Origin: Jimgerdemannia flammicorona
Lineage: Eukaryota
Length of the DNA stretch: 33,610 nt
Direction of reading: 5' to 3'
Assembly: GCA_003990765.1 (NCBI GenBank)
Contig: RBNJ01000304.1
Coordinates: 1 to 33,610, forward strand
Position numbers and translations under genes: made by a program. This document shows positions 11,615 through 33,415 of the stretch, in pieces (position 1 is the first letter of the stretch; each line of letters starts with the position of its first letter). Under the pieces are notes generated by a model, which saw only the letters and a list, made by a program, of their open reading frames with translations, ran no database searches and was not told the DNA's origin.

Positions 11615-14299
11615 GATATTTCTTGAGTCAGTTTTGGTGAATGGTGGTGGGGATTATTGTGCCTGAGGGTTTTTATAGCCAAAAGGTAGTCTCTTTTATA
11701 TCTTGCACAAGGTAAGGTCCTTCCCACTTGGGCTCCAGTTTTCGTGACCATGAAGCTTCTACCATATTCTGATACACTAGGACCTTGTCTCCTATCTTAA
11801 TAATCTCCAAGGGCTTGTGGGTCTTTTCCGCATTCCTCTGTTGTAGTGTCTGCACCTTGGTTATGTAATCCTCAGCCTTCTTTCTGATTTGGTGTAGTCT
11901 CCATATTTCCATGTCCACATGTTTCCATATAGCATCTCCATTGGATGATAGAGTTCCTTGAGAACATTCTTCTCCAAACAGCATTTCTGGAGGGGTAAAG
12001 TGGGTGCTTTGTGATTGGATGTCTCGGAGAGCAGATAATGCTATTGGTAGATAGTGATCCCAGTTCTTGTAGTTATTGCAGATCTTGGCAATAACATTCT
12101 TGAGAGTTTTGTTGGTCCTTTCTACTTGTCTGTTTCCTTGGGGGTGATAGGCTGTGGTCCAAATGTGCTGGATCTTGTACTTCTTGTAGAGAACCTCAAA
12201 GAGCTGGTTTATGAATTCTGTTCCTCTATCTGTAGTTACTTGTGTTGGGGTCTTGAACCGGCAGATGATTTCCTTGTGGAAGAAATTGGCAATTGACTGT
12301 GTATTGGCTTCTTTGAGGGGTCCTGCTTCTATCCACTTCGTAAAAAGGTCTATGATGACAATGATGTATCAGTTACCACTCAGGGTCAAGGGTAGAGGGC
12401 TGATTACATCCATTGCTATATGGCAAATGGTACTGGTTCTATGTGTGCTGATCCTGGGGCTTGATTCCATTGGTCTTGTTTCTGTTTCTGGCATTTGTCG
12501 CATGTCTTGACAAATTGTCTGATATCTTCCTCTATCCCTGGTCACCATATTGTTCTTCTTGCCTTGTCATATATATTTGTTCCTCCTAGATGGCCAAGTT
12601 CATGTACTGATTTCATCGCTTGCTCCTTCTTGTGTTCTGGTATGACCAGTAGTTTTCCTTTCTTCAGTATTTCTCCGTCAGTTTCGAATTGTTTCCATGT
12701 CCTGTTGATAATTGTTTGTATCTATTCTTCCAGATATTGGGGCATCTTTCGCTGTCCCAGGTGTATGATAGTTCCGTAGTAGAGCTCCTTATTCATGATT
12801 GATTTATTGGTTGGAGGTAGTTCGAGGTGTCTGTGAGAGAGCATCTGTATTGGAATTTGTTCTTCCAGGGTGGTATACGATGGTTACATCATAGGCTTGT
12901 AACTTCATTATCCATCTGGCATAGATTCCCTTGGGTTGTCCAGTTGTCAGTAGCCAGATGAGAGCTGAGTAGTCTGTCTGGATGATGAAGTGTCTTCCAG
13001 CCAGATAGTAGTGGAACTTTTCCACAGCCCAGATGACTGCAAGGCATTCCAACTTGTAGGACTCATATTCTTTTTCAGCCCCTTGGGTTCTGTGGCTAAG
13101 ATATGCAATGATATACTCTTTTTTGTCTTCTTTTTGAGCTAGGACTGCTCCTAGTCACTGTGCACTTGCATCCGTCTGAAGGATAAATTCTTGGATCCAA
13201 TTGGGTCGTCTGAGAATGGGTGCCTGAATTAGTCTGATCTTGAGTTTGTCAAATGCTTTTTATTGTCTGCCAGTCCACTGGAACTTGGTATCCTTCTTAT
13301 TGAGTTCATAGATTGGACCCATGATATTGGAGAATCCTCTAATAAATCTGTGATAGTAGGAGGCAAGTCCCATGAAAGCTTGGGCTTCTGTAACAGTAGT
13401 GGGCCTTGGGTATGCTGCTACTGCTTGTATTTTGAGAGGGTCCGTGTGTGTTCCATCTCAATTGATAATATGACCAAGATAGGAGATCTCAATTTCTGCA
13501 AACTTGCACTTCTTGAGTTTGATATAAAGGCCATATTGTCTTAGTCTCTCTATTATCTGCTGTATGTGCTGCAGATGTTCCTCAGGTGTCTTGCTGTAGA
13601 TGATTACATCATCGACATAGACCATCATCCATCTTCCCATGTCATGGCAGAAGATTTTGTTCATCATTCGCTGAAAGCTTGCTGGTGTATTGCACATTCT
13701 GAATGGCATTTGTAGGTAGATGTAGGTTCCGTCTGAGGTGATGAAGGCTGACTTTTCACTTGCCATTTCTGTAGGTCCGATTTGGTGAAATCCTGAGTAT
13801 AAGTCCAAGGTGCTGTAGTACTGTGCTTCATCTCCTAGTGTTATAAGGATGTCACTGATGAGCAGCAGTGGTTGGCAATCCTTCTTGGTAACTGCATTGA
13901 GCTTTTTGTAGTTGACATAGAGCCTTGGGGCAAATTCTCCAAGTTTGCTTCCTTTTTTCAGGGCTAGTACAACTGGTGAAGACCAGGGGCTGCTGGCTTC
14001 TTTGATGATGCCGGCTTCTTCCATCTGCTTGATTTCTTCTCTGAGCCATTCTTGGTAAGCTGGTGGGACAGGTCTTGCCTTCTGATAAATTGGTTTGGTG
14101 TCTCCGATATCTACCTCGTGATAGTAGTGTGGGGTCTTTCCCTTGATATCCTTGAAATCCGTGGCAAGGACATCCTCGAATTTGTAGAGTATTTTCTTGA
14201 GTTCCTCCTTGAGTCTCCGATGGTGTAACTGTGCTTGCTCATGTTTTCCTCCTTCTTATACTCAAGTTCGGTGATCTTGGTGCTAGCGAATACTCCTCT

Positions 14300-14715
14300 T
14301 CCTGTGGATCTGAATCCTTTCTTTCCTCTTTTCATTTCCTCCAGATTCTTGACTTCTATGATCCTTGGCTGTATGATTTGGAAGATCAACATCTGTGCCA
14401 ATCAGTCCTTCTTCTTGACTGGGAATGGAATTGTAGGATTGTGATTCCTAGCAATGAGTAGAATTTCTCCAATATAGTCTGAATCAATGACTCCTCCTTC
14501 GATTGTGATTTCACTTCTAGCCAGGCTGCTTCTAGTCTTGAGAATCCTGACATGATCCTTTGGGATGGTCATCTCTAGTCCAGTTGCGAGTAGGGTGGTT
14601 GTCTGGGGTTCGAGTACAGTTTCTTCTACTGTAGCAATGTCCATTCCGGCTGCATTTTCTGACTTATATTCTGGCAAGACTGCATCAGGGTGGATCTTTT
14701 GAATCTTGACCTTGA
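14300..14715 (-). pseudogene. dut: Trimeric dUTPase domain inside pol, between protease and RT
   Basis: Motifs AAGMDI, RSSLA, GGVIDSDYIGEI, LAQML and RGKKGFRSTG, with one in-frame TGA at 14404-14402. Confidence 0.92.
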
Positions 14716-16873
14716 TTTCTTCTTCATCATCACTGTCCTCCAGGAGGGCTGGTGGTTCATCATCTTCCTCCTTCTCTTCTTCTCTAATCTGTTTTTCGAG
14801 AGCTTTCTGCCTTCTTTCCTGGTAGATCTTCTTGGTTCCGATGGTGTACTGGTAGCAATCATTGACATGCTCTATATAGTACATTTTGATTCCATGAGGA
14901 CAGACTCCTTGTGGGGCATAGCTTTCTGCGATCTTCTTGTACCATTCTTCTTCACTCATCTATCCAACTTTCTTCTTCTTTGGAGTAGTCACCATATAAG
15001 CTTCCTCTTGCTCACTCTCTTCTTCCTCTATATCGGGCAGGACTCCTTTGTTGATGTTGATGGGAATTTGTATCTTCTGTCCCTAGTAGGTGATCTGCAT
15101 CTTCTGAGCATTGAGATTGATTACCGCCTTGGCTTTGTGAAGCCATTGATTGCCGATGAGGATGTCATAGTTGGTGGCATTGGTTATGATTACATCTACT
15201 GGGATTGTTGCTCCTCTGATCTTGATGGGAATATCTCGGATCTATCCCAGAGGTGTGGCTCTTGTGCCATTGGCTGTGGCGAATACTAGCTTAGTTGCTT
15301 CTTCCACGTCCCAACCTAGGCAGTCTGCTGCCTTCTTACTGAGGAGACATCCTCCTGCTCCCATATCAATAATGGCTTCAAAGACTCGATCCTCAATTTG
15401 GCATGTTGCATAAGCAGAGGTTTTGCAATTATCCTCACTTTCTTCTCCTGAGTCCTCTTGAACATTATTGGCCTCAGTTATCTTTCATCCTTGTTTCTTG
15501 GTTGTTTTGGTAAGTCCAAATCTCATTTGCTGTCTGAATGTTGGGATTTCTGCAAGCTGACCAAAGGTTGCATTGACCTTTTGTTGACTGAGATTCTTAA
15601 AGATATCATACTTGAAGGTCTTGGTCTTGTGAAGCTTCTTTTATTTTTCTCCTTCACTGGCTGGAGTGGTTCCTCGGATGATATCCTGAACTGCTTGCTC
15701 TAGCTTGATATCTTGATTCATCTCTTCAGCTTGGCTTTCTGTGTCAGTTTCTATTTGTTTTTCCACTGGGTTCTTCTTGGGTCTTCCTGGCAGTCTCTTG
15801 TAGGGTTCTTTGCAAGCATCCTTCTTGGTGGTCTGAGCAGGATAGGCCTCCCATTCCTCTTCATTGGATTCTCTAATTTCTTCAAAGGTGATTATATTGG
15901 CCTGCTTCTTGTTTCATGTGGCATTGTTTGGTTGAGCCTTGTATTTGGTTTTACTCATATATTCATAGGAGTAGTGGCCTTCTTCTCCACAGCTGTAGCA
16001 GGTACCTTTCTTCTTATCTGAGGTAGCAGCAAACTTCTGAACAGGGCGGCGATCTCTTTCTCAGATTTCCTTTACCACATCCCCCAGGTGGGCAGTCATT
16101 TCAGCAAACCTTTTGGCGAGTTCCTCCATAGGGTCACTGTTCTTTTGCTGCTCTGTAGCTTTTGACTGAGGTGTGTTTCGATTGATCATTGTGGTGGGGA
16201 TCATACTAGTTGCCTTGGGTGCCTTAATTCTGACTCCTGTAACTCTCTCCATTGTATGGTCTTGTGGGTGTCTAGCTATCCAGTATCGCTGAGCATAGGT
16301 GACCTTCTGTGGCAGATCCAGAATTACTAGTGATGAGCAGATGGCCATGGCTATTTCTGGATGGACTCCTTTCATGAAGGTTGCTTTGGCTACTTGATCT
16401 CAGATGGCAGTAGCATAATCTGCAAGAATTATCTGATATCAAATTCTGGTATAGAATGTGTTTGGATTCTCACTCATTTCTTGGCATATTGTGTTGAGCT
16501 GATCCTTCAGGGCTTGCTTGATCTCATCTGTGTAATATGTATTTCGGAGCCAGGTCTTCTGTGCTGTCAGTATGGCATCTGCATCATTTTCTGCATGGGT
16601 TGCGACTGTGAATGCTGCTCTGGCAGGGCCTCATAGACTGAAAGGCATGAGGGCTACTTGCTGTGCTGCTGTCAGAGTCCTTATAGCAGCATACTGCTCG
16701 AAATCATCAATGAAGGTGATGATTAATTCATCTGAGGTATATCCATGGAATACTGGCAGTCTCATATCCATCTTGTCTGGGTATTGGGGCTTGGTTTATA
16801 TGGTTGTTCAGATAGTGGTAGTTGTTCGTTGTTCAGCTTGAAAGTGAGGGATTCATCTTGAATCACCAGTCAA

Positions 16874-16882
16874 TGGGCACTA
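16874..16882 (-). promoter_or_regulatory. Degenerate primer-binding site
   Basis: TAGTGCCCA follows the 5' LTR and is two transitions away from a TGGCGCCCA tRNA-complementary PBS. Confidence 0.55.
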
Positions 16883-17344
16883 AGTTATAATGTAGCAGAT
16901 GCTTACTCTTAAAAGTACATTGGATTTCTGTATCTTGAAAACTTGACCATTCTGACTCTCGCAGAGTCTCTTGAAGTTGTAGGGGAGGGTGGGTGAGTTC
17001 GAAGTGTATCTGCCTGCAGGCTTACTAGTTCCTTTGCTATCTCTTTGCTTTTGAACTATTTCGATCTGAGGTTTATTCACTCAAAGATACTGGGTTATTT
17101 ATATAAGTTTGCTAGCTATGAGAGGGTGGCTAAGTAATAAATGAGTCATTTGGACTTTGTCGAAACATTTGGACAATGTCTAAATGCTATACTAAATCAG
17201 AGTGTTCAATTTGGATAATGTCTAAAAATTTAGACAATGTTGAAATTGAGGACTGCTGACTATAAGGCTATACTACTTTGGGAATGGGTGCGATCAAGTG
17301 TCAATTCCTTATTTTCTTCTTTCAAATTTGGCTGTACCATCACA
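16883..17344 (-). repeat. 5' LTR (462 bp)
   Basis: Direct repeat of 10653-11114. Confidence 0.95.
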
Positions 17345-19950
17345 CTGTCTTTTGGAAATTTCATCAGAATTTTTATTATACTAGATATCTGTATCAGATT
17401 ACTACTTCTTCTATATTTGGTAAAAGATTTTTTTCTTTTTTCCAGATAGTGTCATACTTAGGATATCTTTTCTATTTCACAAAATAGTATCAGATAGACT
17501 TAGTAGCTCATCTAAATTAATGATCCTTGTGATCTACAATATGTATAGTCTACTTTATATTCTGATTATTGATCAATAATTACTAAATCTAATGGTAGCA
17601 TAATTCTTTCTTTAAAGATATTTGGAGTATATGACTAGAGTTGAGATATATGAAACACTAGATAGATTTTTCTTAGTATTACTGAGAGGTCCAACTTATA
17701 TATAATAGATTCATATTTTTTGAAGATCTTGTATGGTCTAATGTAATAGAGTTCAAGCTTCTTTTTAGGACCTATGTTGCTCAGAGTCAGGTGCTGAGTA
17801 TTGAGTAATACTTATTCTCCTATTTTATAGATAACTTCTCTTCTATTTTTATCAGTATATACTATTTATATTCTTTGTACTTCTATGAGGATATATATAT
17901 GTATCATATCTGCTGAATATTATCTTTTAAGATATCAGTAATTTCTTATACTATTAATACTATAGTTTAGATGATAACTATAGGGGTTTATAGGTATTAC
18001 TCATGATTTAAATAAAATTGTATTATTTTGATACTTATATTTGAGTTGTAATTATATATAAATTTGGCTAGAGTTAGCTTTTCATCTTAATTATTTTATT
18101 TGTATATAGCTATAATAAATGCTAAGTATCTACTTTAAGGTTCAATTGGTTCTTTCTGTTTGGCCATTTATTTATAGATAATATTCTGTAGATATTTTCA
18201 GTTTTACTTCTAGGCTCTTGAAGAGTACTTACCAAAAGTTACTTATAAACTTTATATCTTTGTCTAAGATAATTACTGATTGTAGTCTATAGAGACAGAA
18301 TATATTATCAATAAATAGTTATACTATTTCTGATACTATTGCAGTAGTAGTTGTTGTAATAAAGAGAGTCTGCTTACTGAGATAATTGATGAAGATGATA
18401 ATTATATCTCTTTTTTTCTTAGTTTTTGGTAACTAAATAATAAAGTCTACTCTAATATAGTGTAGAAATTGATAGTAGTTATAGTATACTGACTGGTGCC
18501 TGGTTGCTAGCTTTATATCTTTGATAGATATTATAGAATACAATATAATTCTTAATGTTAGATATCATTTTAGACCAGTAAAAGTCTCAGATAATATATT
18601 GGTATATCTTGTCAAATTTCATATATCTAGCTATAGGTAATTCATATAGTTCTTATATGATTCATAAGTAGATAAGAGTATTGGAGATCCAGATTCTCAT
18701 ATTATCAAGATATATATATCTATTTTGGATAGATATATTCTTATAGATCTTTTTTATGATATTACTGTTTTCTTCAAAGATTTGTTTAGTAATTTTTTAT
18801 AAATTGGTATCTTTAGTATACTTCTTCTTGACTTCTTTGAATAGACTGGTATTGATATTGCTAATTATAATAAGGTTACCTTTCTGAGTACTCTAGAAGA
18901 GAGTATTAGCTACTTTATTTTTAGTTCTAGTAATGTATTTGATTTTGATATCAAAGGGTACAAGAATCTGTATCCATCAGACTTATCTTTCTGTAGGGAT
19001 TGGCTGTACCTAAATATATCAAAAAGCTTAATGATTAGTCTATATGGAGAATTTTTTGCTAAGAAGAAAGTATATCTATACTTATAGGAATCAGATAATA
19101 GTAAGGAGTTTCTTATCTTGTATAGTATAGTTTCTTTCATATTTTTTGAGTTTTTGGGACAGATAGATGATATAGTATTTATGTTGAGTTAAGATAGCTC
19201 CAATAGTAATATTTGAAGTATCAGTAGTGACCACAAAGAGTTTTATTGAGTCAGAACTTATTAAGATCATTATATTAGTCAGTATTCTCTTAAGAGTATT
19301 CATAGCTATTATACATACTTCTGTCTATTCTTTTTCAATATTGGTATCTTTTTTGACAAGACTTGTGAGTAGGGTAGCAATTATAGAGAATTCTTGAATA
19401 AATCTCTTATAATATCCTATTAGTTTATTAAATCCTTATAGAGACTTGAGAGTCTTCAAAATGGGTCAATTGTAAATTGCCTGGGTTTTTTTGAGATTAA
19501 GTACAATAATATTTTCTGAGATAATATATCCTAGATATTCAATTTTCTTCTTAAAGAAGTAGTATTTCTTTCTTTTTACTGAGAGCTTATATTTGTAGAG
19601 TATATTGAAGACTATTTATAAGTATTGTTAGTAAATAATACTGCTTATGCTATATACCAGAATGTTATCTAAGTAGACCAGAATAAATACTCTAAGGTGT
19701 TTTCAAAAGATATCATTCATTAGTATTTAGAATATTACTGGTATATTAGTGAGGCTAAATATTATTATATAGAATTTATAGTGTCTAAATCTTATTTGAA
19801 AGACTGTCTTGGCTATATCTTCTTCTTTAATATAAATTTTATAGTATTTGGATATAAGATTAATGAGTGAGAAGATCTTGATCTTATATACTTTATTGAG
19901 TAGTTTATCAATTTTTGAGAGTATATATTAGTTCTTAACTGAGATGTTAT
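17345..19950 (-). mobile_element. Heavily mutated chromovirus-type Ty3/Gypsy pol (RT-RH-IN-chromodomain)
   Basis: Minus-strand remnants: ILVYLDNI (~19660-19685, YLDD), VVTTDTSNITIGAILTQ (RH), QTERTN (IN, ~18145-18165), and YFVK*KRYPKYDTIWKKEKNL (chromodomain, ~17425-17487). Confidence 0.8.
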
Positions 19951-20664
19951 TGAGTACTTGATAATTAATATATATTGTGATGGCTGATCCGAATTAGTAA
20001 TATGAAACAGGGGAATTAGACATTTGATTGCAATACCTGAATCTGATTCCCAATATAGCTTAGCCTCATAAATAGCAGCCATATTCTGCAAAGTACCGAA
20101 ACTTTAATGTTTGCAAAGATTTAGGAGATATTAGAATCTTCACAATCAGTGAAATCTTAGCAGAAGTAGAGGAGGAAGAAGGCCCAGCAGGAGCCAAGGG
20201 AGCGAACCCAGAGCGAGTGTCAAAGCGAATAGAAGACATGTGGAAAGGCGTGTATAAGGGGGACAAACAAAGAATGTAACCGAAATTGCATCAGCCATTT
20301 ATTGCCACGTACAAACATGGTCCTTATATACAAAATACGACGTCCCAAAAGGGAGGACATGCCACAACTCGGGGCGAACTGAATTAGGAACCATATGACC
20401 GCTGGAGATAGGCAGAGATAAAGAGGGAGCCAATCCCAGTTGCAGGATAAAAATCACAAACAAACACAAACAAAACAAATCCAAATCGAGATTAAAAAAC
20501 ATCTGCAGACCCTGGAGGGGTGAGCGCAAGTGAGGGGTGAGGCCAAAATAAAGCGAGCTGCAGCGAGCCTGAGTGAAGCAAGGGGCCGAAGGCAGCAGAG
20601 GGGAGCAGAGTAAGACCAAGACCTTGGAGCGAGGGCGAGACCCCGGAGGGGGCAAGGATGTTTT

Positions 20665-22749
20665 TTAATCCTCTCCGGCAGAACCGGAGGCACCAGAAGG
20701 TGACGAAAACGCAAAACGAGAGTGATAGATTGAAGAAGAAACAGAAGAAAGATGCAAATGAGCAATCAGAGGGCATCGGGAAAGAGATGAAAGTCCATGG
20801 CGCGAAAGAGAAGAGCATAGGACAGTATCAGGGTGTTGAGTGACCCAGCGAGCATGATCAAATGGTACAACGAGAATCAGGGGTGGGAAAGAAGAGGGGG
20901 TACAGAGAGGGTAAGGGGGGAGAGAGGGAAGGGAGGGGGGGTAAAGGGGAGAGAGGAGGGAAGAGCGAACAACAGACCATTCAACAGAAGCAAGTAGATC
21001 GCGAACAATAGAAATAGGGTAGGCACGATGATGGACCACGAAGTTGCCAAGAACCCGAACAGCAGACACCCAATCAGAACGACGGGAGCAGCACAATGCA
21101 AGATGACAAGCCTCACTATGAACACATTCAAGAAGAGTGCGACGAGGATGGTTGGACAAGAAGTCAGAGAACTGTTGGGAATGGGGAAAGCAGGAATAAA
21201 CAACAGTTCGGAAGGGAGAAAGACAAATAGAAAGGTCCAAAAAAGGAATACTAGTCATACCGCACACCCAAGTAATAGAATGATGGGGAGGGTAGATGCC
21301 CAGGAACACACTAGGGATATCAATGCCAGCAACAGCGAAGACAATAAAGTCATCAATGTATCGGCAAAAGAAGATATCTCCAGCCCGGAATGCAATGGAA
21401 AGAGGTGAAGTAATATCATGTAACACATGCAATTCATGGGCCAGGCCAACAAGGTTGGCAAGGGTGGGGGCACAATTCATACCCATGGCAATACCAGAAG
21501 TCTGGTGAAAGGAGCCAAGGGCCGACTCAAAATAATTCAAGCCGCAGACGAGGAGCATAAGCTCAACAATGGAAGCCAGCAAAACTGGGGAATCCAAAGG
21601 AAAAATCAAGGAACCCAAGAAGCGAAGGCAGTCATCAATCTCATCAAAACGAATAGCAGTATAGAAGGAAGAGAAGTCACCAGAGGCCAAATGGGAAAAA
21701 CGGTGAACAGGCACAATGGTGGAGCAGAGAAGGGCGAGCTCCTGAGTATCATGAAGAATAGTATACTCAGGCCCAAGATGGTGTTGTAAGAGAGCCATCC
21801 AGGAGAGAAAGAAGCGAGATAACCACTTTGAAATCTCGGTGGTAGGAGAACTGTACACAGCCGTAATAGGACGCCAAACCAAAGTAGGCTTGTGAACTTT
21901 AGGAAGAGCATAGAAAACTGGAAGAGAAATATCCGGGGAGGACAAAGAGTCCTGGAAGAAGTTAAAAATGGGGTTCGCGAATGGGGAGTCCGAAAGTGAC
22001 CTAGCGTGAGCCAGAGAAACCCAAAGAAGAGTGAGAACCTCATTCAATCCAAGAGCACTAGGCTCGTAAGCCATGGCTCGAAGGAGGGCAGAAAGGCCAT
22101 CAAGATAGAGCAACTTAGGAATAAGTGCAAAACCCTGATTCTTATCAGTGACTGTGAGCAAATGCATAGGCAATTGCTTGATCGATTTAAGTGTGGTATG
22201 CATGGCACAGTCCGAAACCAAGCAAGAGTGAGCTCATCCAGGAACGGACAGTGAGCAGGCCATGTCAAGGAATACACAGTGTGAAGAGACATTGGGAGGG
22301 GAGACTCAATCGCTGGGAACAAAATAGCGAGAGGGCATCTCACCACGATCTTGAAAGAAAATGGCAAGGTCAAGAGCATGACGAAAACGTGTTAGACGAG
22401 CCAGATCAGTGAAGGAGAATTGTGAGGGAGTCGCAGGAAAAACAAAGCAAGGACCCAAGGATAAGGCAAAGACTTGAAGGGGAGAAAGGGGGCAGTCAGC
22501 CGAAGAAAAAGGAGGAGACAAAAGTATTCCAAGAGAAGAATAAACCCGAAAATTTGGGACAAGCAACTGGGAAAGGCGAAGGGGGGACAACATGAGGAAC
22601 CACTCAGGGCACACCAGAAGCGACGACGGAATCCGAGAAGGGACAGGGACAACGGGGGAGAACCACGCCAGGGAGAAGTTTAAGAGCGGGAGGCCTTCCC
22701 CTTCCCTCTGACTTTTTTTGAAGGTGGCAAGCCCGACGAATGGGAGCAC
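20665..22749 (-). pseudogene. PLE reverse transcriptase ORF2, copy A; 518-aa open core, TGA stops at 22308-22306 and 22236-22234
   Basis: ORFs 22749-22306 and 22221-20665 are in one frame and carry the RT motifs listed for copy A. Confidence 0.85.
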
Positions 22750-23896
22750 ATCCCATCAGAGTGCCAGACCTTGCGGTTACAGGCTTTCGTGCAGCCCTTA
22801 TATTCAGGGGCATGGGTGGAGGAGGCGGAGGAGGAACCGGCGGAGGAGGCCAAAGGCGAGCAAGCAGCTGAAGGGGCAGCAGTGCGAGGAACACCACCAT
22901 GGGGACAGATGGACTTGGCCGGGTGCCAGTAGGCATGGTGGAGGCGGCTGGAGCAGACAGCGCAAGGCCAGGCCCCAACGGGGTGAGAACCAAGTTGGCG
23001 GCCATACTTGGGGGCAGGGGGAATGGAGGAGGAAGCCTTGGCGGGGGAGGGGGACCAGGAAGAGGCCGACGAAGCCTGGTTGGGCTTGGCGGGGGTCTTG
23101 GCGGGGTCTTGGAGGGGGCCTTGGCGGCGGCGGCGGCGAAGGAACGAACCTCAGCATGAGCAGCAACATGAGCCTTGGTGCAGATGGCCTCGGAGACCAA
23201 AACCTCAGGAGAGGCAGGCAGGGGAGCAGTGGCGGTGGCGCAAGCAGCAGCGGCAGCACGTGACATTTCCTGCTCGTGAAGGCAAGTGACAAAAGAGGTG
23301 CCGGCGAGGAGGAAGCGACGCACAGCATTGATGTCGGTGGCAACAGAAGGGACATCCTGGATGGCGAAGCCACAGAAGGGGGCAGCATCTGAAAGATGAG
23401 AGGAGGCGAAGGCCATGAAAGCGGCACAGGCATGTTGGAAGGAGGTGGAGGTGGCAGCAGCAGAAGCAGCGGTGGCATCAGCGGCGGCAAGTTTGGCGGC
23501 GGCAGTAGCAGCACGAACCTCTTCAGAGAGGGCTTGGCGGCGGGCCTCAGGGAGAATGGAGTAGCGGACAGTGAGCGGAGCGACGATGTCGACATCATGG
23601 CGGAGATGAGCCTCCTTGGCAGAGAGGGCAAGGACCGACCGGAACTGAGAGAGGAGTGGATGACCAGAAGGATGAAGGTCCAAGGGGAGGGAAAGGATGG
23701 CAGAAGAGACATAGGTCTCGAAGGAGACAGTGGCGGAGGTGAAGGCAGGGGGAGGAGGAGGAGGAAGTACCTCATCCATGAGCTCGTCAACGAGGATGGA
23801 GGCCCCGAGGGCAGGCGGTACAGCAGAGGAGGAAGAAGGCCCAGTGGGAGCCAAGGGAGTGAACCCAGAGCCAGTGTCAAAGTGAACGGAAGACAT
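22680..23896 (-). pseudogene. PLE ORF1, copy A; 1-bp deletion near 23103
   Basis: Aligns with 24566-25795 until the PAKT 12-bp repeats, where one base is missing. Confidence 0.75.
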
Positions 23897-24486
23897 GTAG
23901 AAAGGTGTGTATAAGGGGGACGAACAAAGAACGTAACCGAAATTGCATCAGCCATTTATTGCCACATACAAACGCAGTCCTTATATACAAAATACGACGT
24001 CCCAAAAGAGAGGACGCGCCACAACTCAGGGTGAACCGAATTAGGAACCACATGATCGCCAGAGATAGGCAGAGATAAAGGGGAAGCCAATCCCAGTTGT
24101 AGGATAAAAATCTCAAACAAACACAAACAAAACAAATCCAAATCGAGATTAAAAAACATCCGCAGACCCTGGAGGGGTGAGCATGAGTGAGGGGTGAGGC
24201 CGAAATGGAGCAAGCTGCAGCGAGCCCGAGCGAAGCGAGGGGCCGAAGGCAGCAGAGGGGAGCGGAGTAAGGCCGAGACCCCGGAGCGAGCGCGAGACTC
24301 CAGAGGGGGCAAGGATGTTTTTTAATCTCGATTTGGATTTGTTTTGTTTGTGTTTGTTTGTGATTTTTATTCTGTAACTGGGATTGGCTCCCCCTTTATC
24401 TCTGCCTATCTCCGGCAGTCATGTGGTTCCTAATTCGGTTCGCCCCGAGTTGTGGCACGTCCTCCCTTTTGGGACGTCGTATTTTG

Positions 24487-24519
24487 TATATAAGGACTGC
24501 ATTTGTACGTGGCAATAAA
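24487..24519 (+). promoter_or_regulatory. TATA-like box and AATAAA within the pseudo-LTR
   Basis: TATATAAG at 24487-24494 and AATAAA at 24514-24519, conserved in all four pLTR copies, about 50-80 nt upstream of ORF1. Confidence 0.4.
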
Positions 24520-24565
24520 CGGCTGATGCAATTTCGGTTACGTTCTTTGTTCGTCCCCCTTATAC

Positions 24566-25795
24566 ATGTCTTTCCACATGTCTTCCGTTCGCTTTGACAC
24601 TGGCTCTGGATTCGCTCCCTTGGCTCCCGCTGGGCCTTCTTCCTCCTCTGCTATACTGCCTGCCCTCGGGGCCTCTGTCCTCGTCGACGAGCTCATGGAT
24701 GAGGTACTTCCTCCTCCTCCTCCCCCTGCCTTCACCCCCACCACTGTCTCCTTCGAGACCTATGTCTCTTCTGCCATCCTTTCCCTCCCCTTGGACCTTC
24801 GTCCTTCTGATCGTCCGCTCCTCTCTCAGTTCCGGTCAGTCCTTGCCCTCTCTGCCAAGGAGGCTCGTCTCTGCCGTGACGTCGACGTCATCGCTCTGCC
24901 CACTGTCCGCTACTCCGTTCTCTCTGAGGCCCGCCGCCAAGCCCTCTCTGAAGAGGTTCATGCCACTACTGCCGCCGCCAAACTCGCTACCACTGACACT
25001 ACCGCTGCTTCCACCGCCGCCACCTCCACCTCCTTCCAACGTGCCTGTGCCACTTTTGTGGCCTTCGCCTCCTCTCGTCTTTCGAATGCCGCCCCCTTCT
25101 ATGGCTTCACCATCCAGGATGTCCCTTCTGTTGCCACTAACATCAATGCTGTGTGTCGCTTCCTCCTCGCCAGCACCTCTTTTGTCGCTCACCTTCACGA
25201 GCAGGAAATGTCATGTGCTGCCACTGCTGCTTGCGCCGCCGCCACTGCTCTCCTGCCCGCCTCTCCTGAGGTTTCGGTCTCCGAGGCCATCCGCGCCGAG
25301 GCTTGTGCTGCTGCTCATGCCGAGGTTCATTCCTTCGCCACCGCCACCGCCAAGGCCCCCTCCAAGACCCCTGCCAAGACCCCCACCAAGCCCAACCAGA
25401 CTTCGTCGGCCTCTTCCCGGTCCCCCTCCCCCACCAAGGCTTCCTCCTCCATTCCCCCTGCCCCCAAGCATGGCCGCCAACTTGGTTCTCGCCCCGTCGG
25501 GGCCTGGCCTTGCGCTGTCTGCTCCAGCCGCCTCCATCGTGCCTACTGGCACCCGGCCAAGTCCGTCTGTCCCCATGGTGGTGTTCCTCATGCTACTGCC
25601 CCTTCGGCTGCTCGCTCGCCTTTAGCCTCCTCCGCCGGTTCCTCCTCCGCCTCCTCCACCCATGCCCCTGAATGTAAGGGCTGCATGAAAGCCTGTGGCT
25701 GCAAGGTCTGGCACTCTGATGGGGTGTGCTCCCATTCGTCGGGCTCGCCACCTTCAAAAAAAGTCAGAGGGAAGGGGAAGGCCTCCCGCTCTTAA
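24566..25795 (+). CDS. PLE ORF1, 409 aa: Pro/Ala-rich helical region plus two Cys/His clusters
   Basis: Open frame containing CAVCSSRLHRAYWHPAKSVCPH and HAPECKGCMKACGCKVWHSDGVCSH. The ATG shared by all copies is at 24578. Confidence 0.7.
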   Translation: MSFHMSSVRFDTGSGFAPLAPAGPSSSSAILPALGASVLVDELMDEVLPPPPPPAFTPTTVSFETYVSSAILSLPLDLRPSDRPLLSQFRSVLALSAKEARLCRDVDVIALPTVRYSVLSEARRQALSEEVHATTAAAKLATTDTTAASTAATSTSFQRACATFVAFASSRLSNAAPFYGFTIQDVPSVATNINAVCRFLLASTSFVAHLHEQEMSCAATAACAAATALLPASPEVSVSEAIRAEACAAAHAEVHSFATATAKAPSKTPAKTPTKPNQTSSASSRSPSPTKASSSIPPAPKHGRQLGSRPVGAWPCAVCSSRLHRAYWHPAKSVCPHGGVPHATAPSAARSPLASSAGSSSASSTHAPECKGCMKACGCKVWHSDGVCSHSSGSPPSKKVRGKGKASRS

Positions 25796-27810
25796 ACTTC
25801 CCCCCGGCGTGGTTCTCCCTTGGTGTCCCCGTCTCTTCTCGGATTCTGTTGTCGCTTCTGGTGTGCCCTGAGTGGTTCCTCATGTTGTCCCCCCTTCGCC
25901 TTTCCCAGTTGCTTGTCCCGAATTTTCGGGTTTATTCTTCTCTTGGAACACTTTTGTCTCCTCCTTTTTCTTCGGCTGACTGCCCCCTTTCTCCCCTTCA
26001 AGTCTTTGCCTTATCCTTGGGTCCTCACTTTGTTTTTCCTGCGACTCCCTCACAATTCTCCTTCACTGATCCGGCTTGTCTAACACGTTTTCGTCGTGCT
26101 CTTGACCTTGCTATTTTCTTTCAAGATCGTGGTGAGATGCCCTCTCGCTATTTTGTTTCCAGCGATTGGGTCCCTCCTCCCAATGTCTCTTCACACTGCG
26201 TATTCCTCAACATGGCCTACTCACTGTCCATTCCTGGATGAGCTCGCTCTTGCTTGGTTTTGGACTGTGCCATGCGTACTACACTTAAATCGGTCAAGCA
26301 ATTGCCTATGCATTTGCTCACAGTCACTGATAAGAATCAGGGTTTTGCACTTATTCCTAAGTCACTCTACCTTGATGGCCTTTCTGCCCTCCTTCGAGCC
26401 ATGGCTTACGAGCCTAGTGCTCTTGGATTGGACGAGGTTCTCACTCTTCTTTGGGTTTCTCTGGCTCACACTAGGTCGCTTTCGGACTCCCCATTCGTGA
26501 ACTCCATTTTTAACTCCTTCCAGGACTCTTTGTCCTCCCCGGATATTTCTCTTCTGGTTTTCTATGCTCTTCCTAAAGTTCACAAGCCTACTTTGGCTTG
26601 GCGTCCTATTACGGCTATATATAGTTCTCCTACCACCGAGATTTCGAAGTGGTTATCCCACTTCTTTCTCTCCTGGATGGCTCTCTTACAACACTGTCTT
26701 GGGCCTGAGTATACTATTCTTCGTGATACTCAGGAGCTCGCCCTTCTCTGCTCCACCATTGTGCCTGTTCACCATTTTTCCCATTTGGCCTCTGGTGACT
26801 TCTCTTCCTTCTATACTGCTATTCGTTTTGATGAGATTGATGACTGCCTTCACTTCTTGGGTTCCTTGGTTTTTCCTTTGGATTCCCCAGTTTCGCTGAC
26901 TTCTATTGTTGAACTTACGCTCCTCGTCTGCGGCTCGAATTATTTTGAGTCGGCCCTTGGCTCCTTTCACCAGACTTCTGGTATTGCCATGGGTACGAAT
27001 TGTGCCCCCACCCTTGCCAACCTTGTTGGCCTGGCCTATGAATTGTGTGTGTTACGTGATATTACTTCACCTCTTTCCATTGCATTCTGGGCTGGGGATA
27101 TCTTCTTTCGCCGATACATTGATGACTTTATTGTCTTCGCTGTTGCTGGCATTGATATCCCTAGTGTGTTCCTGGGCATCTACCCTTCCCATCATTCTAT
27201 TACTTGGGTGTGCGGTACGACTAATATTCCTTTTTTGGACCTTTCTATTTCTCTTTCTCCCTTCCGAACTGTTGTTTATTCCCACTTTCCCCATTCCCAA
27301 CAGTTCCCTGACTTCTTGTCCAACCATCCTTGTCACACTCTTCTTGAATGTATTCGTGGTGAGGCTCGTCATCTTGCATTGTGCTGCTCCTGTCATTCTG
27401 ATTGGGTGTCTGCTGTTCGGGTTCTTGGCAACTTCGTGGTCCATCGTCATGCCTACCCTATTTCTATCGTTTGCGATCTGCTTGCTTCTGTTGAATGGTC
27501 TGTTGTTCGCTCTTTCCTCCTCTCTCCCCTTTACCCCCCCTCCCTTCCCTCTCTCCCCCCTTACCCTCTCCATACCCCCTCTTCTTTCCCACCCCCGATT
27601 CTCGTCGTACCATTTGATCGTGCTTGCTGGGTCACTCAATGCCCTGATACCGTCCTACACTCTTCTCTTTCATGCCATGGACTTTCATCTCTTTCCCGAT
27701 GCCCTCTGATTGCTCGTTCGTGTCTTCCTTCTGTTTCTTCTTCAATCCATCACTCTCGTTTTGTGTTTTCATCACCTTCTGGTACCTCTGGTTCTGCCGG
27801 AGAGGATTAA
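25726..27810 (+). pseudogene. PLE reverse transcriptase ORF2, copy B; -1 frame relative to ORF1, single internal TGA at 26239-26241
   Basis: ORFs 25726-26241 and 26254-27810 are in the same frame. RRYIDD is intact. Confidence 0.85.
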
Positions 27811-28307
27811 AAAACATCCTTGCCCCCTCCGGGGTCTTGCGCTCGCTCTGGGGTCTCGGCCTTACTCCGCTCCCCTCCGCTGCCTTTGGCCCCTCGCTTC
27901 ACTCAGGCTCGCTGCAGCTTGCTCCATTTCGGCCTCACCCCTTGCTCGCGCTCACCCCTCTGGGGTCTGTGGATGTTTTTTAATCTCAATTTGGATTTGT
28001 TTTGTTTGTGTTTGTTTGTGATTTTTATCCTACAACTGGGATTGGCTCCCCCTTTATCTCCGCTTATCTCCGGCGGTCATGTGGTTCCTAATTCGGTTCG
28101 CCCCAAGTTGTGGTGCATCCTCCCTTTTGGGACGTCATATTTTGTATATAAGGACTGCATTTGTACATGGCAATAAATGGCTGATGCAATTTCGGTTCTA
28201 TTCTTTGTTCATCCCCCTTATACATGCCTTTCCACATGTCTTCCGTTCGCTTTGACACTGGCTCTGGGTTCGCTCCCTTGGCTCCTGCTGGGCCTTCTTT
28301 CTCCTCT

Positions 28308-29505
28308 TCATTGATGATTTTGAGCAGTATGCTGCTGTGAGGACTCTGACAGCAGTACAGCAAGTAGCCCTCATGCCCTTCAGCCTACAAGGTCCTGCCA
28401 GAGCAGCATTCACAGCTGCAACCCATGCAGGAAATGATGCCGATGCTATACTGACAGCACAGAAGACCTGGCTCCAAAATACATATTATACAGATCAGCT
28501 CAATACAATATACTAAGGAATGAGTGAGGATCCAAACACATTCTATATCAGAATTCGATATCAGATAATCCTCATGGATTATGCTGCTGCTATCCAAGAT
28601 CAAGTAGCTGAAGCAACCTTTATGAAAGGAGTTTACCCAGAGATAGCCATGGCTATCTGTTCATCACTAGTAGTCTTGGATCTGTCACAGAAGGTCATCA
28701 GACACCAACAAGACTATACAATAGAAAGAGTCACAGGAGTCAGAATCGAAACACCCAAGGCAACCAGTGTGATTCCTACTACAATGATCAATCAAAATAT
28801 ACCTCAGCCAAAAACTACAGAGCAGCAAAAGAACAGTGACCCTATGGAAGAACTTGCTAAGAGGTTTGCTGAAATGACCACTCACCTGGGAGACGTGGTA
28901 AAAGAAATCCAAAGAAGAAACTGCCAACCAGTTCAGAAGTTTGTTGCCACCTCAGATAAGAAGAAAGATACCTACTATATCTGTGGAGAAGAAGACCACT
29001 ACTCCTATGAATATATGAGTGAAACCAAGCACAAGACTCAATCAAGCAATGCTATATGAAACAGAGAGCAGGCCAATATAATTACCTTCAAGGAAATTGG
29101 AGATTCTGATGAAGAAGAATGGGAGGCCTATCCTGCTCAGACTATCAAGAAGGATGTTCGCAAGGAACCCTACAAGAGATCACCAGGAAGACCCAAAAAG
29201 AACCCAGTAGAAAAGCAGATGGAAACAGCCACCGAAAGCCAAGCTGAAGAGATGGATTAAGATATAGAGCTGGAGCAAGTAGTTTAAGATATTATCCAAG
29301 GAACTATCCCAGCCAGCAAAGGAGAAAAAGAAAAGAAACTTTGCAAGATCAAGACTTTCAAGTATAATATCTTCAAGGATCTTAGCCAACAAAAGATCAA
29401 TGCAACCTTTGGTCAGCTTGCAGAAAACCCAATATTCAGATAACAAATGAGGTTTGGACTTGCTGAAACAACCAAGGAGTAAGGATGGAAGATAACTGAG
29501 GCTAA
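28308..29505 (+). mobile_element. Truncated gag fragment of the same dUTPase-Gypsy family
   Basis: Matches the reverse complement of ~16713-15470 (NSDPMEELAKRFAEM, zinc-knuckle remnant YYICGEEDHYSYEY), with small deletions. Confidence 0.88.
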
Positions 29506-29509
29506 ATAT

Positions 29510-32087
29510 AGATGATCTTCAATATCTTAGTTTTCTCCTTGATCTTGTTAGAGTACTTTTCTGTTAATCCAAAAGCTTTTCCTCCTCTATCAAAAGATGA
29601 TAGTTTATTTATTTCTTCAACTTCAAGATTATTACATATTATCTCAATAAAGGTTTAAGTAATTTATTTTTCATATATAATTTTGATAGTCTTTTATCTG
29701 GTATTATATAGTAGAACTTTGATCTTACTTTTGAATTCTTGATCTATAACTACTCTAGCTATATAGAGTCTCTTTTCTTTAGTCAGACTACTTCTTTCTG
29801 CAAAGCAGATATAGGTACCTTTGGGGACTTCTATTCTAATATCTATGCTAATAATTACTTGCTTATTTGGTTCAATAATTACTTCTATATTAAAGTAGAG
29901 ATTATAACTAGTATTAAATTTATCTACTTTGTCTGGGATCTTTACAGCAATGTAGAATCTCTTGATCTTGATTTTCTCAGAGGTTTCTTTGAGATTATCT
30001 TCTATTATAGTAATGGTATGTAAGCAAAATAGTTCTTTATTTATATTAGTCTTTTTGTCAGAATATTTGTAAGACTTATATCTTCTCTTTTTACTTATCA
30101 GATAGTTTCTTAAATCTACCTTATGGTCTTGAGGACCTATTCTAAAATTTATACTTTTTCTTAAATTGGCATTATTTGTCTTCTTTGTTATTTCTATTAT
30201 CTCACTATAAGAATAGTATATACTCTAATAATAGCTTATCCTAAATACTATTACTCATATAAGTAATTATAGAGTTGTTCTTATTTATAGATTTTTTCTA
30301 ATAATTATTTAGGGGTAATATTGAAGAAATAGATAGCTTGTATTTTATTTACAATCCTTTTATAGTATTTAGAAAGATTTCCAGTCTTATATTGAATACT
30401 TTAAGATTTTCTTTTCTATTATTATAGAATTATAAGTTCTTTACCTTAGTTCAGGCTTTAATAATATAAGCTGAGCTGTAGAACTATTAGATGATTAGTT
30501 TCTTTAAATCTATAGTTGCTGAATAGACTTATAGTCAGAGCAATCATTATCTCCTTCACTTGTATTAATTTTAGCATAGGTTTCTCAGGTAAGAGAGTAT
30601 ACTAGCAGATTATACTACTACTAGACAGCTGTACCTATAAAGTGTATAGCAACTTTGTCTACTTATGAGCTTACAGTTATATAGAGATCTTTAATCTCAT
30701 TATACTCATTATTATTGAGAGAACTGTCTGGATTCTAATTGTCATTTCAACTATTGATATAATAATTAGTATCAATGTATCTTATAAATATTACTACTTA
30801 GTCTACTTTATCTTTAAATTAGATGAGACAGAGGTCTTTTATAGAGTTGTTGTTCAATACTGAGGTAAAGGACTTGAGTGAGTATAGCTACTTAATTAGC
30901 TAATATTATTATCTTATCATCTGCTAATATTATTCTACTATTTCTATTATCTATTTAGTAAGATTATTGAGATTCTTCTTCTGTTGTTATGATATGTTAA
31001 TCATAGTTTGAAGTTAATTCTTCTATAATATTACTGAGATAAGTGAGCTTGTAGACTAGTGGTCTTGATAGAATGACTATTGGATCTGCTATAATTTTTA
31101 ATAGACTTAATGACCTCAGTAATAGTTTTATAATAGTACTAAGATCACCAATATCAGATTAAGGTATTTTTACAATTATTCTCCTAGATCTGAATGATAT
31201 GGTAGAGACTTTACTAGATCTGGTAGCATATAGTTCTTATTGCTGAATTATTCTTATCTATATATAGAAAATTCAGTAATAGAAGTGGAATTTCTTTTAA
31301 TAGATATAGTATCCCTTGTAGTTCAGAAAGACATTAGCTTTATAATAGCAATTATTAGAGAGAGGGTTTAGAAAATATTTGCTTATAGCCTCAATATTTA
31401 TATTTCTTATAGAAGTGACTACTGACTAGCTTATTGAATTTCTCTTTAAGTTTAGAAGTATAGAAAACTTCCTTATTGAGTATAAGGAAAGTATTGAATA
31501 CTTCTTGAATGATTTCATTGTTGAGTTTATTATACTTCTCTTGACTGATATAGGGTTTAGTCTACTTGATAATAATTCTGTTAAATTCTTCAGCTTGAGT
31601 CTAAGGAATATTCAGAGTATAGATACTTTTAGACTATCACTGACAATATTAGCAATATTGATCAGTTCTGATTATCTATAGTAGATTCTTAAAAGAAGAT
31701 TGCTTGTAAGTGGAGAGTAACTTCCACTTCTACTAAATTATAATAAAACTATATACTAATAGAATTAATATATTACAGAGAGTTAAAGGTAACTTTTGGT
31801 CTTAAGTTCTGAGTTCTTGAGGAAGTACTGAGTTCCAATTATCTATTGTAGTAGAGTTCAGATATTACTTTTAGATTCTTATATTAGTGAGAGAGCTGTG
31901 CTTATATTCTAAGTTAATTAGGTTTAAAATTGTTAATAAGTCAGATATGAGGATTTCTTATAATATAAATACTACTTTATTCTTATATTTAGGGCAAGTG
32001 GAGCTGATGTTACAATACACTCAATATAGAGAGTATTTTTTATATATTTGAGGCTATAACTAAATATAGTATACTAGATATATCTAT
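29510..32087 (-). mobile_element. AT-rich decayed element, possibly a non-LTR (LINE-like) RT
   Basis: Minus-strand remnants resemble NYRPI (~31070-31100), LADD (~30916-30927) and RY(L/I)G-like FIRYID (~30772-30789). All are very degenerate. Confidence 0.4.
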
Positions 32088-32401
32088 TGTCACGTAGTGG
32101 TCGCTGAGTCCTTCAAATACGCCAGATTCTCTTCAAGGTGTATCTCTTAGACTAACTCAAGTTATTATAAGCAAGTTCTTATTGGACTGCCTTCCCAAGG
32201 TCTTATAGTCCTCAAACTTCTTATCTTTAACTGTCTTGTTATCTCTTAGATTGCTTGCAAGGAAGTGTGTATATTGCACTGAGAGGAACTGACTTTATTT
32301 CAGAGGAAATAAGGGAGGTATTTATACAAAATATAATTCAATAGTTGCTAAGATATAAAGCTAAATATAAATTCCAATAACTAAAACTACTGAGTTCCAG
32401 G

Positions 32402-32598
32402 GCTGGCATTATTTAGTACCACATCAAAATACCGGTGCTGGAACAATTTCACGTCACCTGAGAATACCGGTGCTGGCATTATCCAGTGTTACATGAGAAT
32501 ACCGGTGCTGGCATTATCCAGTGTTACATGAGAATACCGGTGCTGGCATTATCCAGTGTTATATGAGAATACCGGTGCTGGCATTATCCAGTATAACA
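32402..32598. repeat. 35-bp tandem repeat, ~5.6 copies (GCTGGCATTATCCAGTGTTACATGAGAATACCGGT)
   Basis: Units start at 32402, 32437, 32472, 32507, 32542 and 32577; the first two are diverged. Confidence 0.92.
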
Positions 32599-32605
32599 AA
32601 GAACT

Positions 32606-33415
32606 TTAGAGCAGAAAGTTCAGGATCATGGGAGCTTCATCATCATCATCATCACTGAAGGAGATGAGGTCCGTGAATACTTCGTCATTTTCGCGTGCCT
32701 CGACGTTGTGTGGGATGACGTCATTGATGACGTCATCACGTTCGGGTGTGGCAGGAAAATCGGGAACAAGGTCTGGAGCTCTCCAGTCTATGAGGTTCTC
32801 CTCCACAAAATAGGGGACAAATGTGGGGTCTTGGGGGGATCTAACCTGGATGCTTGGGCCTTGGAATACTGAGATCAATCCTTGCAGGAATTGGTCTGGG
32901 TTGTCCTGAAGGATTGGGTGCCAGAAGTCTTCTACTTCTTCGCTGTTGAGGGTGATGGTGGACTGGGCTTCTGTAGCCACCCTGGCTTCTAGTGCATTGA
33001 TGCAGTGAGATGACAGATCTCTGAAATCTGAGACTCTAATATACTCCAGGTTGGGAATCGACCATGGTGTATGCCTGAAGATCTGATGGATCTTCTTAGC
33101 TGTCCTTGTTTCACGTATATCCATGGGAGTGGCATCTTGTAGCTCTTGGGTGCTGGCCTGTGGGAACTCCTGGCAGAGGAGGTTTCCTATTTCGTACTCC
33201 TGCCACATTTGGAGACATTCGGTGGTGATGGTGATCCTTGTTTCCATTTCACGGCGGTAGAGGATGAAGTGATAGGGGTCTGCAGTACCCAGATAGATAC
33301 TAGGAGTCCTTCTTGAGTGGGTCTCCATGGCTCTTCTGATGTCTTGAAACATCCTTTCCTCAACCGAGATACCTTGATGATTCCTTGACCTTGAGGTTTG
33401 GTGGGCAGCAGGCAT
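32606..33415 (-). CDS. Intact 269-aa hypothetical protein with an acidic tail; accessory ORF3-like protein of an LTR element
   Basis: Open ATG-TAA frame. Its motifs QEYEIGNLL, TRTAKKIHQIF and IPNLEYIRVSDF match the decayed ORF at 11614-11030. Confidence 0.72.
   Translation of the reverse strand: MPAAHQTSRSRNHQGISVEERMFQDIRRAMETHSRRTPSIYLGTADPYHFILYRREMETRITITTECLQMWQEYEIGNLLCQEFPQASTQELQDATPMDIRETRTAKKIHQIFRHTPWSIPNLEYIRVSDFRDLSSHCINALEARVATEAQSTITLNSEEVEDFWHPILQDNPDQFLQGLISVFQGPSIQVRSPQDPTFVPYFVEENLIDWRAPDLVPDFPATPERDDVINDVIPHNVEARENDEVFTDLISFSDDDDDEAPMILNFLL

Follow-up and report, generated by a model that had tools for sequence, protein, structure and literature searches.

A head-to-head dimer of an endonuclease-less Penelope-like element in the fungus Jimgerdemannia flammicorona, joined at the element's own hairpin

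The way in which tandem and inverted copies of Penelope-like elements (PLEs) arise is still unsettled, and we addressed it here with an 8.1-kb palindrome of a PLE in the fungus Jimgerdemannia flammicorona, located within positions 1 to 33,610 of contig RBNJ01000304.1 (hereafter the window, the whole stretch of 33,610 nt that was analysed; all coordinates are window positions). The closest described systems are PLEs that bear an endonuclease (EN). As reported in the parts of PMC3846280 cited here, Penelope insertions of Adineta vaga carry two direct pseudo-long terminal repeats (pLTRs) together with one inverted pLTR, the inverted and direct pLTRs overlap by 15 bp, and palindromes of 18 bp and 38 bp lie at pLTR 5' ends. 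Some of these insertions lack a target-site duplication and show microhomology joins, and the same parts state that this organisation is not shared by the EN-deficient PLEs of fungi and protists. According to the passages of PMC8557442 used here, the organisation is attributed to the cleavage properties of the endonuclease, and the features of transposition are 'still undefined'. In most PLE clades the pLTR carries a hammerhead ribozyme, which Naiad and most Chlamys elements lack.

Head-to-head PLE copies with palindromic junctions, and with them the idea of self-priming, are already published for EN-bearing PLEs, as the cited parts of PMC3846280 show. What is new at this locus is the occurrence of this organisation in an EN-less fungal PLE and in its fullest form, since both copies are complete and meet at a hairpin that belongs to the element itself. 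No paper on Penelope elements in Jimgerdemannia was found in the literature searched.

Two complete copies joined at the element's hairpin

Self-comparison of the window revealed the 8.1-kb palindrome, in which arm A (20168-24161, 3994 bp) and arm B (24313-28307, 3995 bp) flank 151 nt. The similarity falls into two collinear inverted-repeat blocks, the first of 2939 nt (20168-23106 against 25369-28307, 94% identity) and the second of 1059 nt (23103-24161 against 24313-25371, 91%). In a global alignment, the arms were paired over 3994 columns with 280 mismatches, corresponding to 93.0% identity, and the single gap column between them, at B 25372, accounts for their lengths of 3994 and 3995 bp. 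A chance origin of 4-kb arms of this kind is excluded, and the palindrome is a genuine, old head-to-head dimer of an EN-less PLE.

The centre of the palindrome consists of GATTAAAAAACATCC (24147-24161), the 151 nt, and then GGATGTTTTTTAATC (24313-24327). The 151 nt proved to be the reverse complement of B 27820-27970, as part of an inverted match between 23825-24327 and 27805-28307. They are thus element DNA and not foreign, and arm A therefore extends to 24327, where it overlaps arm B by 15 bp. No other perfect inverted repeat in the element unit is as long as this 15-bp repeat, the runners-up having 11 nt, and by our own arithmetic about 0.01 inverted pairs of 15 bp would be expected by chance in 4 kb. 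The 15-bp stems and the 151 nt between them are predicted to fold into a long imperfect hairpin (-77.7 kcal/mol as RNA, z -4.3, with 0 of 200 shuffles at least as stable). Likewise, a DNA strand ending at 24327, which would form the 3' end of the cDNA of arm A, is predicted to fold with all of its last 15 nt paired (-33 kcal/mol, z -2.8, 3 of 200 shuffles at least as stable). At the outside of the palindrome, both arms end on the same element base, as ...GGGCCTTCTT(C/T)CTCCTCT, and the adjoining flanks are unrelated; the 3' end of the element reads ...GGGCCTTCTTCCTCCTCT, also written ...CCUCCUCU.

Each arm contains a direct repeat with a spacing of 3657-3658 nt, and an arm is therefore made of a 3658-nt unit and 337 nt of a second copy, which is the pLTR layout of PLEs. 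A pLTR formed by a partial tandem copy was thus present in both arms, with an extra 166 nt in arm A. The resulting parts of the palindrome are as follows.

20168-24327, minus strand: arm A, composed of 166 nt from an upstream 5'-truncated copy (24327-24162, including the 151-nt 'spacer'), a full 3658-nt unit and a 337-nt partial tandem copy that ends at the element 3' end (20168)
24313-28307, plus strand: arm B, composed of a full 3658-nt unit (24313-27970) and a 337-nt partial tandem copy (27971-28307) that ends at the element 3' end
24147-24327, no strand assigned: palindrome centre, the element's own quasi-palindromic hairpin, which recurs in its normal context at 27805-27985 and at about 20490-20670, the latter in arm A
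24313-24649, plus strand: pLTR copy B5, 337 nt
27971-28307, plus strand: pLTR copy B3
23825-24161, minus strand: pLTR copy A5
20168-20504, minus strand: pLTR copy A3

Candidate motifs of the pLTR, read by eye from the alignment, are TATATAAG, AATAAA and the start codon of the first open reading frame (ORF1). A G/T-rich tract with a period of 10 (TTTGTGTTTG, 2.6 copies) was also observed after the hairpin stem, at 24338-24362 in B5, 27996-28020 in B3 and 20455-20479 in A3.

A first-pass annotation of this DNA, made from the sequence alone, had already given the arms, the 151-nt gap, the central 15-bp repeat and the 1-bp difference, and the self-comparison and global alignment found these correct to the base. 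It had also mentioned that PLEs often show partial tandem or inverted pLTRs, and the partial-tandem layout is now located in each arm. It had put the inversion point at the element's own inverted repeat and had both arms end at one base, and both observations held. Its account of the 151 nt as a spacer was right in length, but this is element sequence and not foreign DNA, and more than a plain loop, as it is predicted to fold together with the stems.

The locus thus resembles EN-bearing PLEs (Adineta vaga in PMC3846280; Naiad, Chlamys and canonical PLEs in PMC8557442) in several respects, as far as the cited parts describe them: a full copy follows a 5'-truncated tandem copy, an inverted copy stands head to head with it at the 5' end, the inverted junction holds a palindrome or a short overlap, and the pLTR holds an ORF start. 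In the EN-bearing animal elements, however, these parts describe an inverted pLTR that is usually short and truncated, a GIY-YIG endonuclease and, mostly, a hammerhead, whereas in the fungal element both copies are full length and neither a nuclease nor a ribozyme was found.

Reading frames and lineage of the element

Two reading frames were recognised in each arm.

24566-25795, plus strand: ORF1 of arm B, 409 aa, Ala/Ser-rich, with a Cys-rich C-terminus
22604-23896, minus strand: ORF1 of arm A, frameshifted by a 1-bp deletion opposite B 25372
25720-27810, plus strand: reverse transcriptase (RT) frame of arm B, with a 512-aa ORF from the ATG at 26272
20665-22203, minus strand: RT ORF of arm A, 512 aa, 88% identical to that of arm B

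ORF1 matched no Pfam family and had no match in the Atlas. A soil-metagenome contig that covers 25259-25494 aligns to arm B without a gap, and this suggests that arm A has lost 1 bp here. ORF1 runs about 75 nt into the RT frame (25720-25795), with the RT in the -1 frame. As judged from the sequence, this layout would allow a programmed frameshift, and the legend of figure 1 in PMC8557442 shows PLE ORF1 set apart by a frameshift.

In an alignment with relatives, the 512-aa ORF of arm B displayed the motifs TDKNQG and LPKVHK, the Asp of motif A, GIAMGTNCAP, YIDD and the thumb. The RT frame extends 5' of the ATG at 26272, as RRALDLAIFF...SDWVPPP, and this extension was aligned to the N-terminal PLE region of the relatives. 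An in-frame TGA (26239-26241) breaks the frame inside the conserved N-terminal part and is common to both arms (about 22234-22236 in arm A), and the upstream RT frame of arm A has one additional stop, from TGG to TGA.

Against the Pfam family RVT_1, the RT ORF reached 24.8 and 18 bits, under the curated cut-off of 29.6. Protein relatives were nevertheless numerous, with 2516 at E<=1e-3, 350 of them at E<=1e-10, and domains carried by relatives include PF26215 (HTH_animal) and PF28514 (DUF8422). The only named matches to the RT were frog PLE-like proteins, and a sequence search of the PDB with the RT gave no match at E<=1. Thus, the protein has the features of a PLE-type RT, namely the DKN motif, LPKVHK, the N-terminal motifs and the thumb, and its relatives are of the PLE RT type.

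We then searched for an endonuclease with a GIY-YIG profile built from the C-terminal domain of five EN-bearing relatives. The profile detected a C-terminal GIY-YIG in 31 of 217 relatives; in the six frames of 20000-28500 its best score was 1.3 bits, although a divergent N-terminal endonuclease of the Chlamys type could escape it. Pfam GIY-YIG likewise gave no match up to E 10 in both ORFs of both arms. In a FastTree phylogeny of 194 RT cores, the element falls in a clade of 39 sequences (support 0.927), none of which has GIY-YIG; some relatives are cut by contig ends, and for these the absence is no proof. The 30 EN-bearing sequences lie in a separate clade of 40 tips. The missing nuclease is therefore a trait of the lineage and not a recent loss. 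Furthermore, neither a hammerhead ribozyme nor any other Rfam family was matched at E<=1 on either strand of 19500-29000. By its sequence, then, the element is a PLE without an encoded endonuclease, and in this respect the negative GIY-YIG searches and the EN-less clade of 39 agree with the first-pass annotation.

Among EN-deficient PLEs, the element is similar to Coprina and Athena as these are presented in the cited parts of PMC8557442, PMC3846280 and PMC13159263, the comparison being one of descriptions. The shared features are the lack of GIY-YIG, a DKN-type motif (here TDKNQG) in place of DKG, two ORFs that may overlap in the -1 frame, terminal direct repeats, a fungal host and the use of pre-existing DNA ends, as proposed below for this element. 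By contrast, Coprina and Athena are described in these parts as attaching to telomeres through reverse-complement telomeric repeats beside a hammerhead, and neither was found here: even with one mismatch, no dimer of TTAGGG, the assumed host telomere repeat, occurs in the 33.6-kb window. The telomeric setting that the first-pass annotation had named as typical of EN-deficient PLEs is thus without any sign in the window. An EN-deficient PLE away from a visible telomere repeat, and apparently at a break with loss of target, would mean a wider landing range for these elements.

Decay of the arms and the route of insertion

The 280 differences between the arms comprise 274 transitions and 6 transversions. 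CpG sites hold 199 of the 274 transitions, and 38% of the 522 CpG cytosines differ between the arms, with the context taken from the C/G-polarised state; in the other contexts, 29 of 453 (CpA), 41 of 703 (CpC) and 5 of 545 (CpT) differ. From the ratio of 274 to 6 and the share of CpG, it follows that the arms were near-identical at formation and decayed in place. This bears directly on an assembly or chimeric-read artefact. Palindromes are a known artefact of chimeras in long-read libraries, and a fold-back artefact would yield identical arms, whereas these arms differ at 7% of their sites with a biological spectrum, and the neighbouring pair of long terminal repeats (LTRs) shows a like spectrum of 21:1. 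Although tandem and inverted PLE structures trouble assemblies, as a passage of PMC8557442 mentions, we regard an artefact as scarcely credible at this locus.

The same bias was seen in other repeats of the window. The LTR pair (10654-11114/16884-17344) differs by 21 transitions and 1 transversion, an LTR-element fragment (28308-29505 against 15468-16713) by 156 transitions and 12 transversions, and a further repeat pair (31731-32082/9462-9811) by 45 transitions and 7 transversions, so that the transition to transversion ratios over the repeat pairs of the window are 46:1 in the palindrome, 21:1 in the LTRs, 13:1 in the fragment and 6:1 in the other pair, with the changes concentrated at CpG. 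Since the bias is shared, the decay is general to methylated repeats here and not specific to the palindrome, and the sequence pattern points to heavy cytosine methylation of repeats in this genome. In the LTRs, 45% of the CpG cytosines differ, against 38% in the palindrome, and the closeness of these values indicates that the two insertions are of similar age.

Repeat-induced point mutation acting on CpA was considered and dropped, because 199 of the 274 transitions lie at CpG and the CpA value (6.4%) is no different from that of CpC (5.8%). Selection on the arms was also dropped as a candidate: the probability that both RT ORFs stay open is 0.046, and the upstream frame has stops. The RT ORF shows 20 synonymous to 66 non-synonymous differences, against about 24:66 in simulations without selection.

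Any two of the four pLTR copies are set apart by 22-30 differences over 337 sites, the pair within arm A by 30 and the pair within arm B by 22. In 38 of the 50 variable columns the change is private, one copy having T/A against C/G in the other three, and the six columns with a 2:2 division split 2:2:2 across the three possible groupings. From this star pattern, all four copies, and hence both arms, were once alike. Together with the 6 transversions among 280 differences, the pattern also shows that the arms do not belong to different subfamilies, an outcome that the first-pass annotation had named as a sign of independent insertions and as a refutation of its reading.

These counts enter into a history of two sequential events, in which arm A was resident, a later break occurred at or next to its fragile hairpin end, and a second cDNA, primed from the right, was joined to the first copy by the 15-nt microhomology. 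A long hairpin is a plausible fragile site, and microhomology at 5' junctions is described for PLEs and for long interspersed nuclear elements in the cited parts of PMC3846280. Derived changes were inferred slightly more often in arm A (145) than in arm B (129), and the pLTR pairs agree in direction with 30 against 22 differences. However, the excess in arm A amounts to about one standard deviation by our estimate, the pLTR star pattern shows no two ages, and the second hit would be needed exactly at the 5' end of the earlier copy. We thus hold two separate events to be distinctly unlikely.

The other explanations are weighed on the flanks, which are listed here.

28308-29505, minus strand: right flank, an LTR-retrotransposon fragment with 83% identity to 15468-16713 of the full neighbouring copy
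17345-20167, no strand assigned: left flank, AT-rich, 25-29% GC

Alignment to the full copy showed that the fragment in the right flank breaks off precisely at the edge of the palindrome, which corresponds to 16713 in that copy, and that 2 nt (CT) are common to the fragment and the element end. In the left flank, no similarity was seen to the LTR element, including the part of the target that is missing beyond the fragment, and none in inverted orientation to the right flank. The final 3 nt of the left flank (AGT) equal the element sequence that follows the 3' end in the tandem unit, so that the direct repeat starts at 20165. No target-site duplication was found at the two outer junctions of the palindrome.

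A duplication at the level of DNA, in which a break by the short inverted repeat of a single tandem insertion is followed by resection, by fold-back of the strand on the repeat and by host synthesis that duplicates the arm, would account for the centre of the palindrome. Such fold-back inversion resembles palindromic amplification, and a short inverted repeat with a spacer is what it typically leaves at the centre. The copying should then have included host DNA outside the element as well, but the arms end on the last base of the element, with unrelated DNA next to it and without inverted similarity between the flanks, and for this reason we reject the explanation as very improbable.

The fold-back of a single cDNA meets a related difficulty. 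In this scheme, which had been the headline of the first-pass annotation, one target-primed cDNA (arm A) folds at the hairpin stem 151 nt upstream and self-primes a full copy (arm B), which is then joined to the other side of the target. The exact stem-loop-stem at the centre, the near-identity of the arms at formation and the predicted pairing of the last 15 nt in a strand ending at 24327 all agree with it, and self-priming at palindromic junctions has already been proposed for EN-bearing PLEs in the cited parts of PMC3846280. Yet the copying would be expected to continue into the left flank, so that an inverted copy of that flank should lie at the right, and none is present; otherwise an exact stop at the joint between cDNA and target, with ligation to unrelated DNA, is required. 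The 2-nt microhomology at the right junction and the missing target also stay unexplained. As the two flanks are not contiguous and neither is an inverted copy of the other, two cDNAs are favoured and the pure snap-back is the less likely course, which we consider unlikely at this locus. The alternative that the first-pass annotation had offered, in which the repeat brought together two cDNAs primed from either end of a break, is in better agreement with the anatomy.

We thus prefer, with belief and doubt about evenly balanced, a single insertion of the EN-less PLE at a chromosomal break, by two cDNAs primed from both of its ends. Both 3'-OH ends of the break, one per strand, would have primed reverse transcription, and the start point at both ends would have been the same defined 3' base of an element RNA longer than one unit. 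Initiation of reverse transcription at a fixed template site would explain why the same element base is found at both outer ends. The two antisense cDNAs would then have grown toward one another and paired through the 15-nt stems of the hairpin that the element itself carries, because two antisense strands with one and the same sequence match each other nowhere but in self-complementary stretches. Subsequently, each cDNA would have templated the second strand of the other, and the product would be a head-to-head pair with its tails outward, the hairpin at its centre and both outer junctions on the same base, without a target-site duplication and with target sequence lost. Decay in place by C-to-T changes of the methyl-cytosine type would have followed.

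The anatomy, the near-identity of the arms at formation, the absence of an encoded nuclease and the state of the flanks are shown by the sequence. Priming from both ends, the annealing step and the single event are what we infer; several observations fit them. These are the 2-3 nt of microhomology at each outer junction, the missing target and the lack of a target-site duplication; the central 15-nt overlap at the longest perfect inverted repeat, as part of a stable hairpin; and the near-identical arms of equal age and the absence of GIY-YIG from any frame. In addition, PMC11167929 reports, in the part cited here, that a purified EN-bearing PLE protein cleaves and extends both target strands in vitro.

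Several points weigh against priming from two ends. The junction at the hairpin comes from this one locus, and the anatomy of the centre is equally predicted by the snap-back of a single cDNA. The case for the flanks as break ends depends on one diverged paralogue of the target, amid many transposon fragments, and the fragment in the right flank may have been truncated earlier. Extension of both strands is known for an EN-bearing animal PLE, not for this lineage, to which it would apply by analogy. Finally, since the in-frame TGA is common to both arms, the template copy may already have been defective and copied in trans; either this happened or CGA changed to TGA twice. Besides the four histories weighed against priming from two ends, the remainder of our confidence goes to explanations not considered here.

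Priming from both ends of a break has parallels elsewhere. Twin priming of human L1, reportedly described by Ostertag and Kazazian in 2001, is said to involve cDNA priming by both 3' ends of the target, joining by microhomology and an inversion, as proposed here. In L1 the second primer anneals inside the same RNA and gives one element with an inverted 5' part, whereas the two arms of the present palindrome share one 3' terminal base as their starting point and are both complete elements. The Anolis PLE protein PAc, as described in the cited part of PMC11167929, is also comparable, in that reverse transcription begins at defined sites inside the RNA that lack homology to the target and both target strands are extended. 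PAc differs in cutting with its own GIY-YIG, and the 'tail' extension given in that source was not seen in the present element.

A broader scheme would make the conserved hairpin at the pLTR boundary a built-in device for the second strand, by which cDNAs pair with themselves or with a partner, so that integration at breaks would need no nuclease of the element's own, and the tandem and inverted architecture of all PLEs would come from the RT and RNA structure and not from GIY-YIG. That an EN-less lineage has the same architecture argues that the RT and the structure of the template are enough; the broader scheme as a whole we hold to be distinctly unlikely. The first-pass annotation had spoken of a programmed, nuclease-free route to integration. 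'Nuclease-free' is sound in the sense that the element encodes no nuclease, and not beyond that sense, and a programmed route is best kept as a hypothesis because the evidence comes from one locus. The significance of the palindrome is bounded in the same way, by one decayed locus. Transcription across the 8-kb palindrome would yield long double-stranded RNA, which could silence the family.

Metagenomic relatives and genomic surroundings

One public run, a soil metagenome, carries 9% of the sampled words and was the only run with related sequence. Against 23900-28700 it gave 240 contigs, mostly 90-99% alike and, among the eight listed, 171-629 nt long; the run is no guide to habitat or copy number. 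These contigs yielded no informative junction, since the two joints seen, 24023/28116 on opposite strands and 28048 to 24393 (back 3656), are the equivalences expected from the pLTRs and the arms, and an exact-pattern scan of the metagenome contigs for the stem, 140-165 nt and the stem again gave 0 matches.

A protein-guided scan of the metagenome contigs recovered 46 loci (L001-L046) with 22-31% identity. No head-to-head pair of RTs was present in the 46 loci, and short-read contigs seldom survive such repeats. Inverted repeats in L026 and L044 are unrelated, and the possibility that L026 is a rearranged L017 was ruled out by comparison. GIY-YIG was found in 3 of the 46 loci, the other 43 being without it in the available DNA. 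In 16 loci the same 100-240 nt or so occur at both contig ends, with units of about 3.1-5.5 kb (one of these, L027, also has GIY-YIG), and on the contig L018/L019 an identical unit of 3196 nt is repeated in tandem about 3.7 times. Judging from these contigs, the mostly nuclease-less relatives seem to be commonly tandem or circular, as long head-to-tail arrays or circles.

In the window, the palindrome sits among transposons, about 12.6 kb from the nearest host-gene ORF. The neighbouring element has the following parts.

10654-17344, minus strand: full LTR retrotransposon, with 461-nt LTRs at 10654-11114 and 16884-17344 that are 95.2% identical
13458-14024: RT ORF of the LTR retrotransposon (RVT_1, E 1.5e-28)
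14402-14959: dUTPase ORF of the LTR retrotransposon

AT-rich blocks of 17-29% GC (8000-10650, 17345-20167 and 29500-32300) alternate with genes and transposons of 42-60% GC, and the block at 8000-10650 is full of degenerate short repeats such as TATTTTTACTAATTT. Toward the right end of the window, a 269-aa ORF on the minus strand (32606-33415) has no Pfam match, and a tandem array with a 35-nt unit (32402-32592, 5.5 copies, 86% matches) lies just upstream. Pieces of host genes were found on the minus strand at 3954-4974 and 6456-7520, and those on this strand include two ubiquitin-hydrolase (USP7-like) exons about 95 nt apart. The 354-aa ORF at 6456-7520 on the minus strand, which points to an Endogonales fungus as the probable host, has a weak BTB match (19.9 bits, under the cut-off of 20.5) and shares 87% identity over 32% of its length with a TRAF-like protein of Jimgerdemannia flammicorona.

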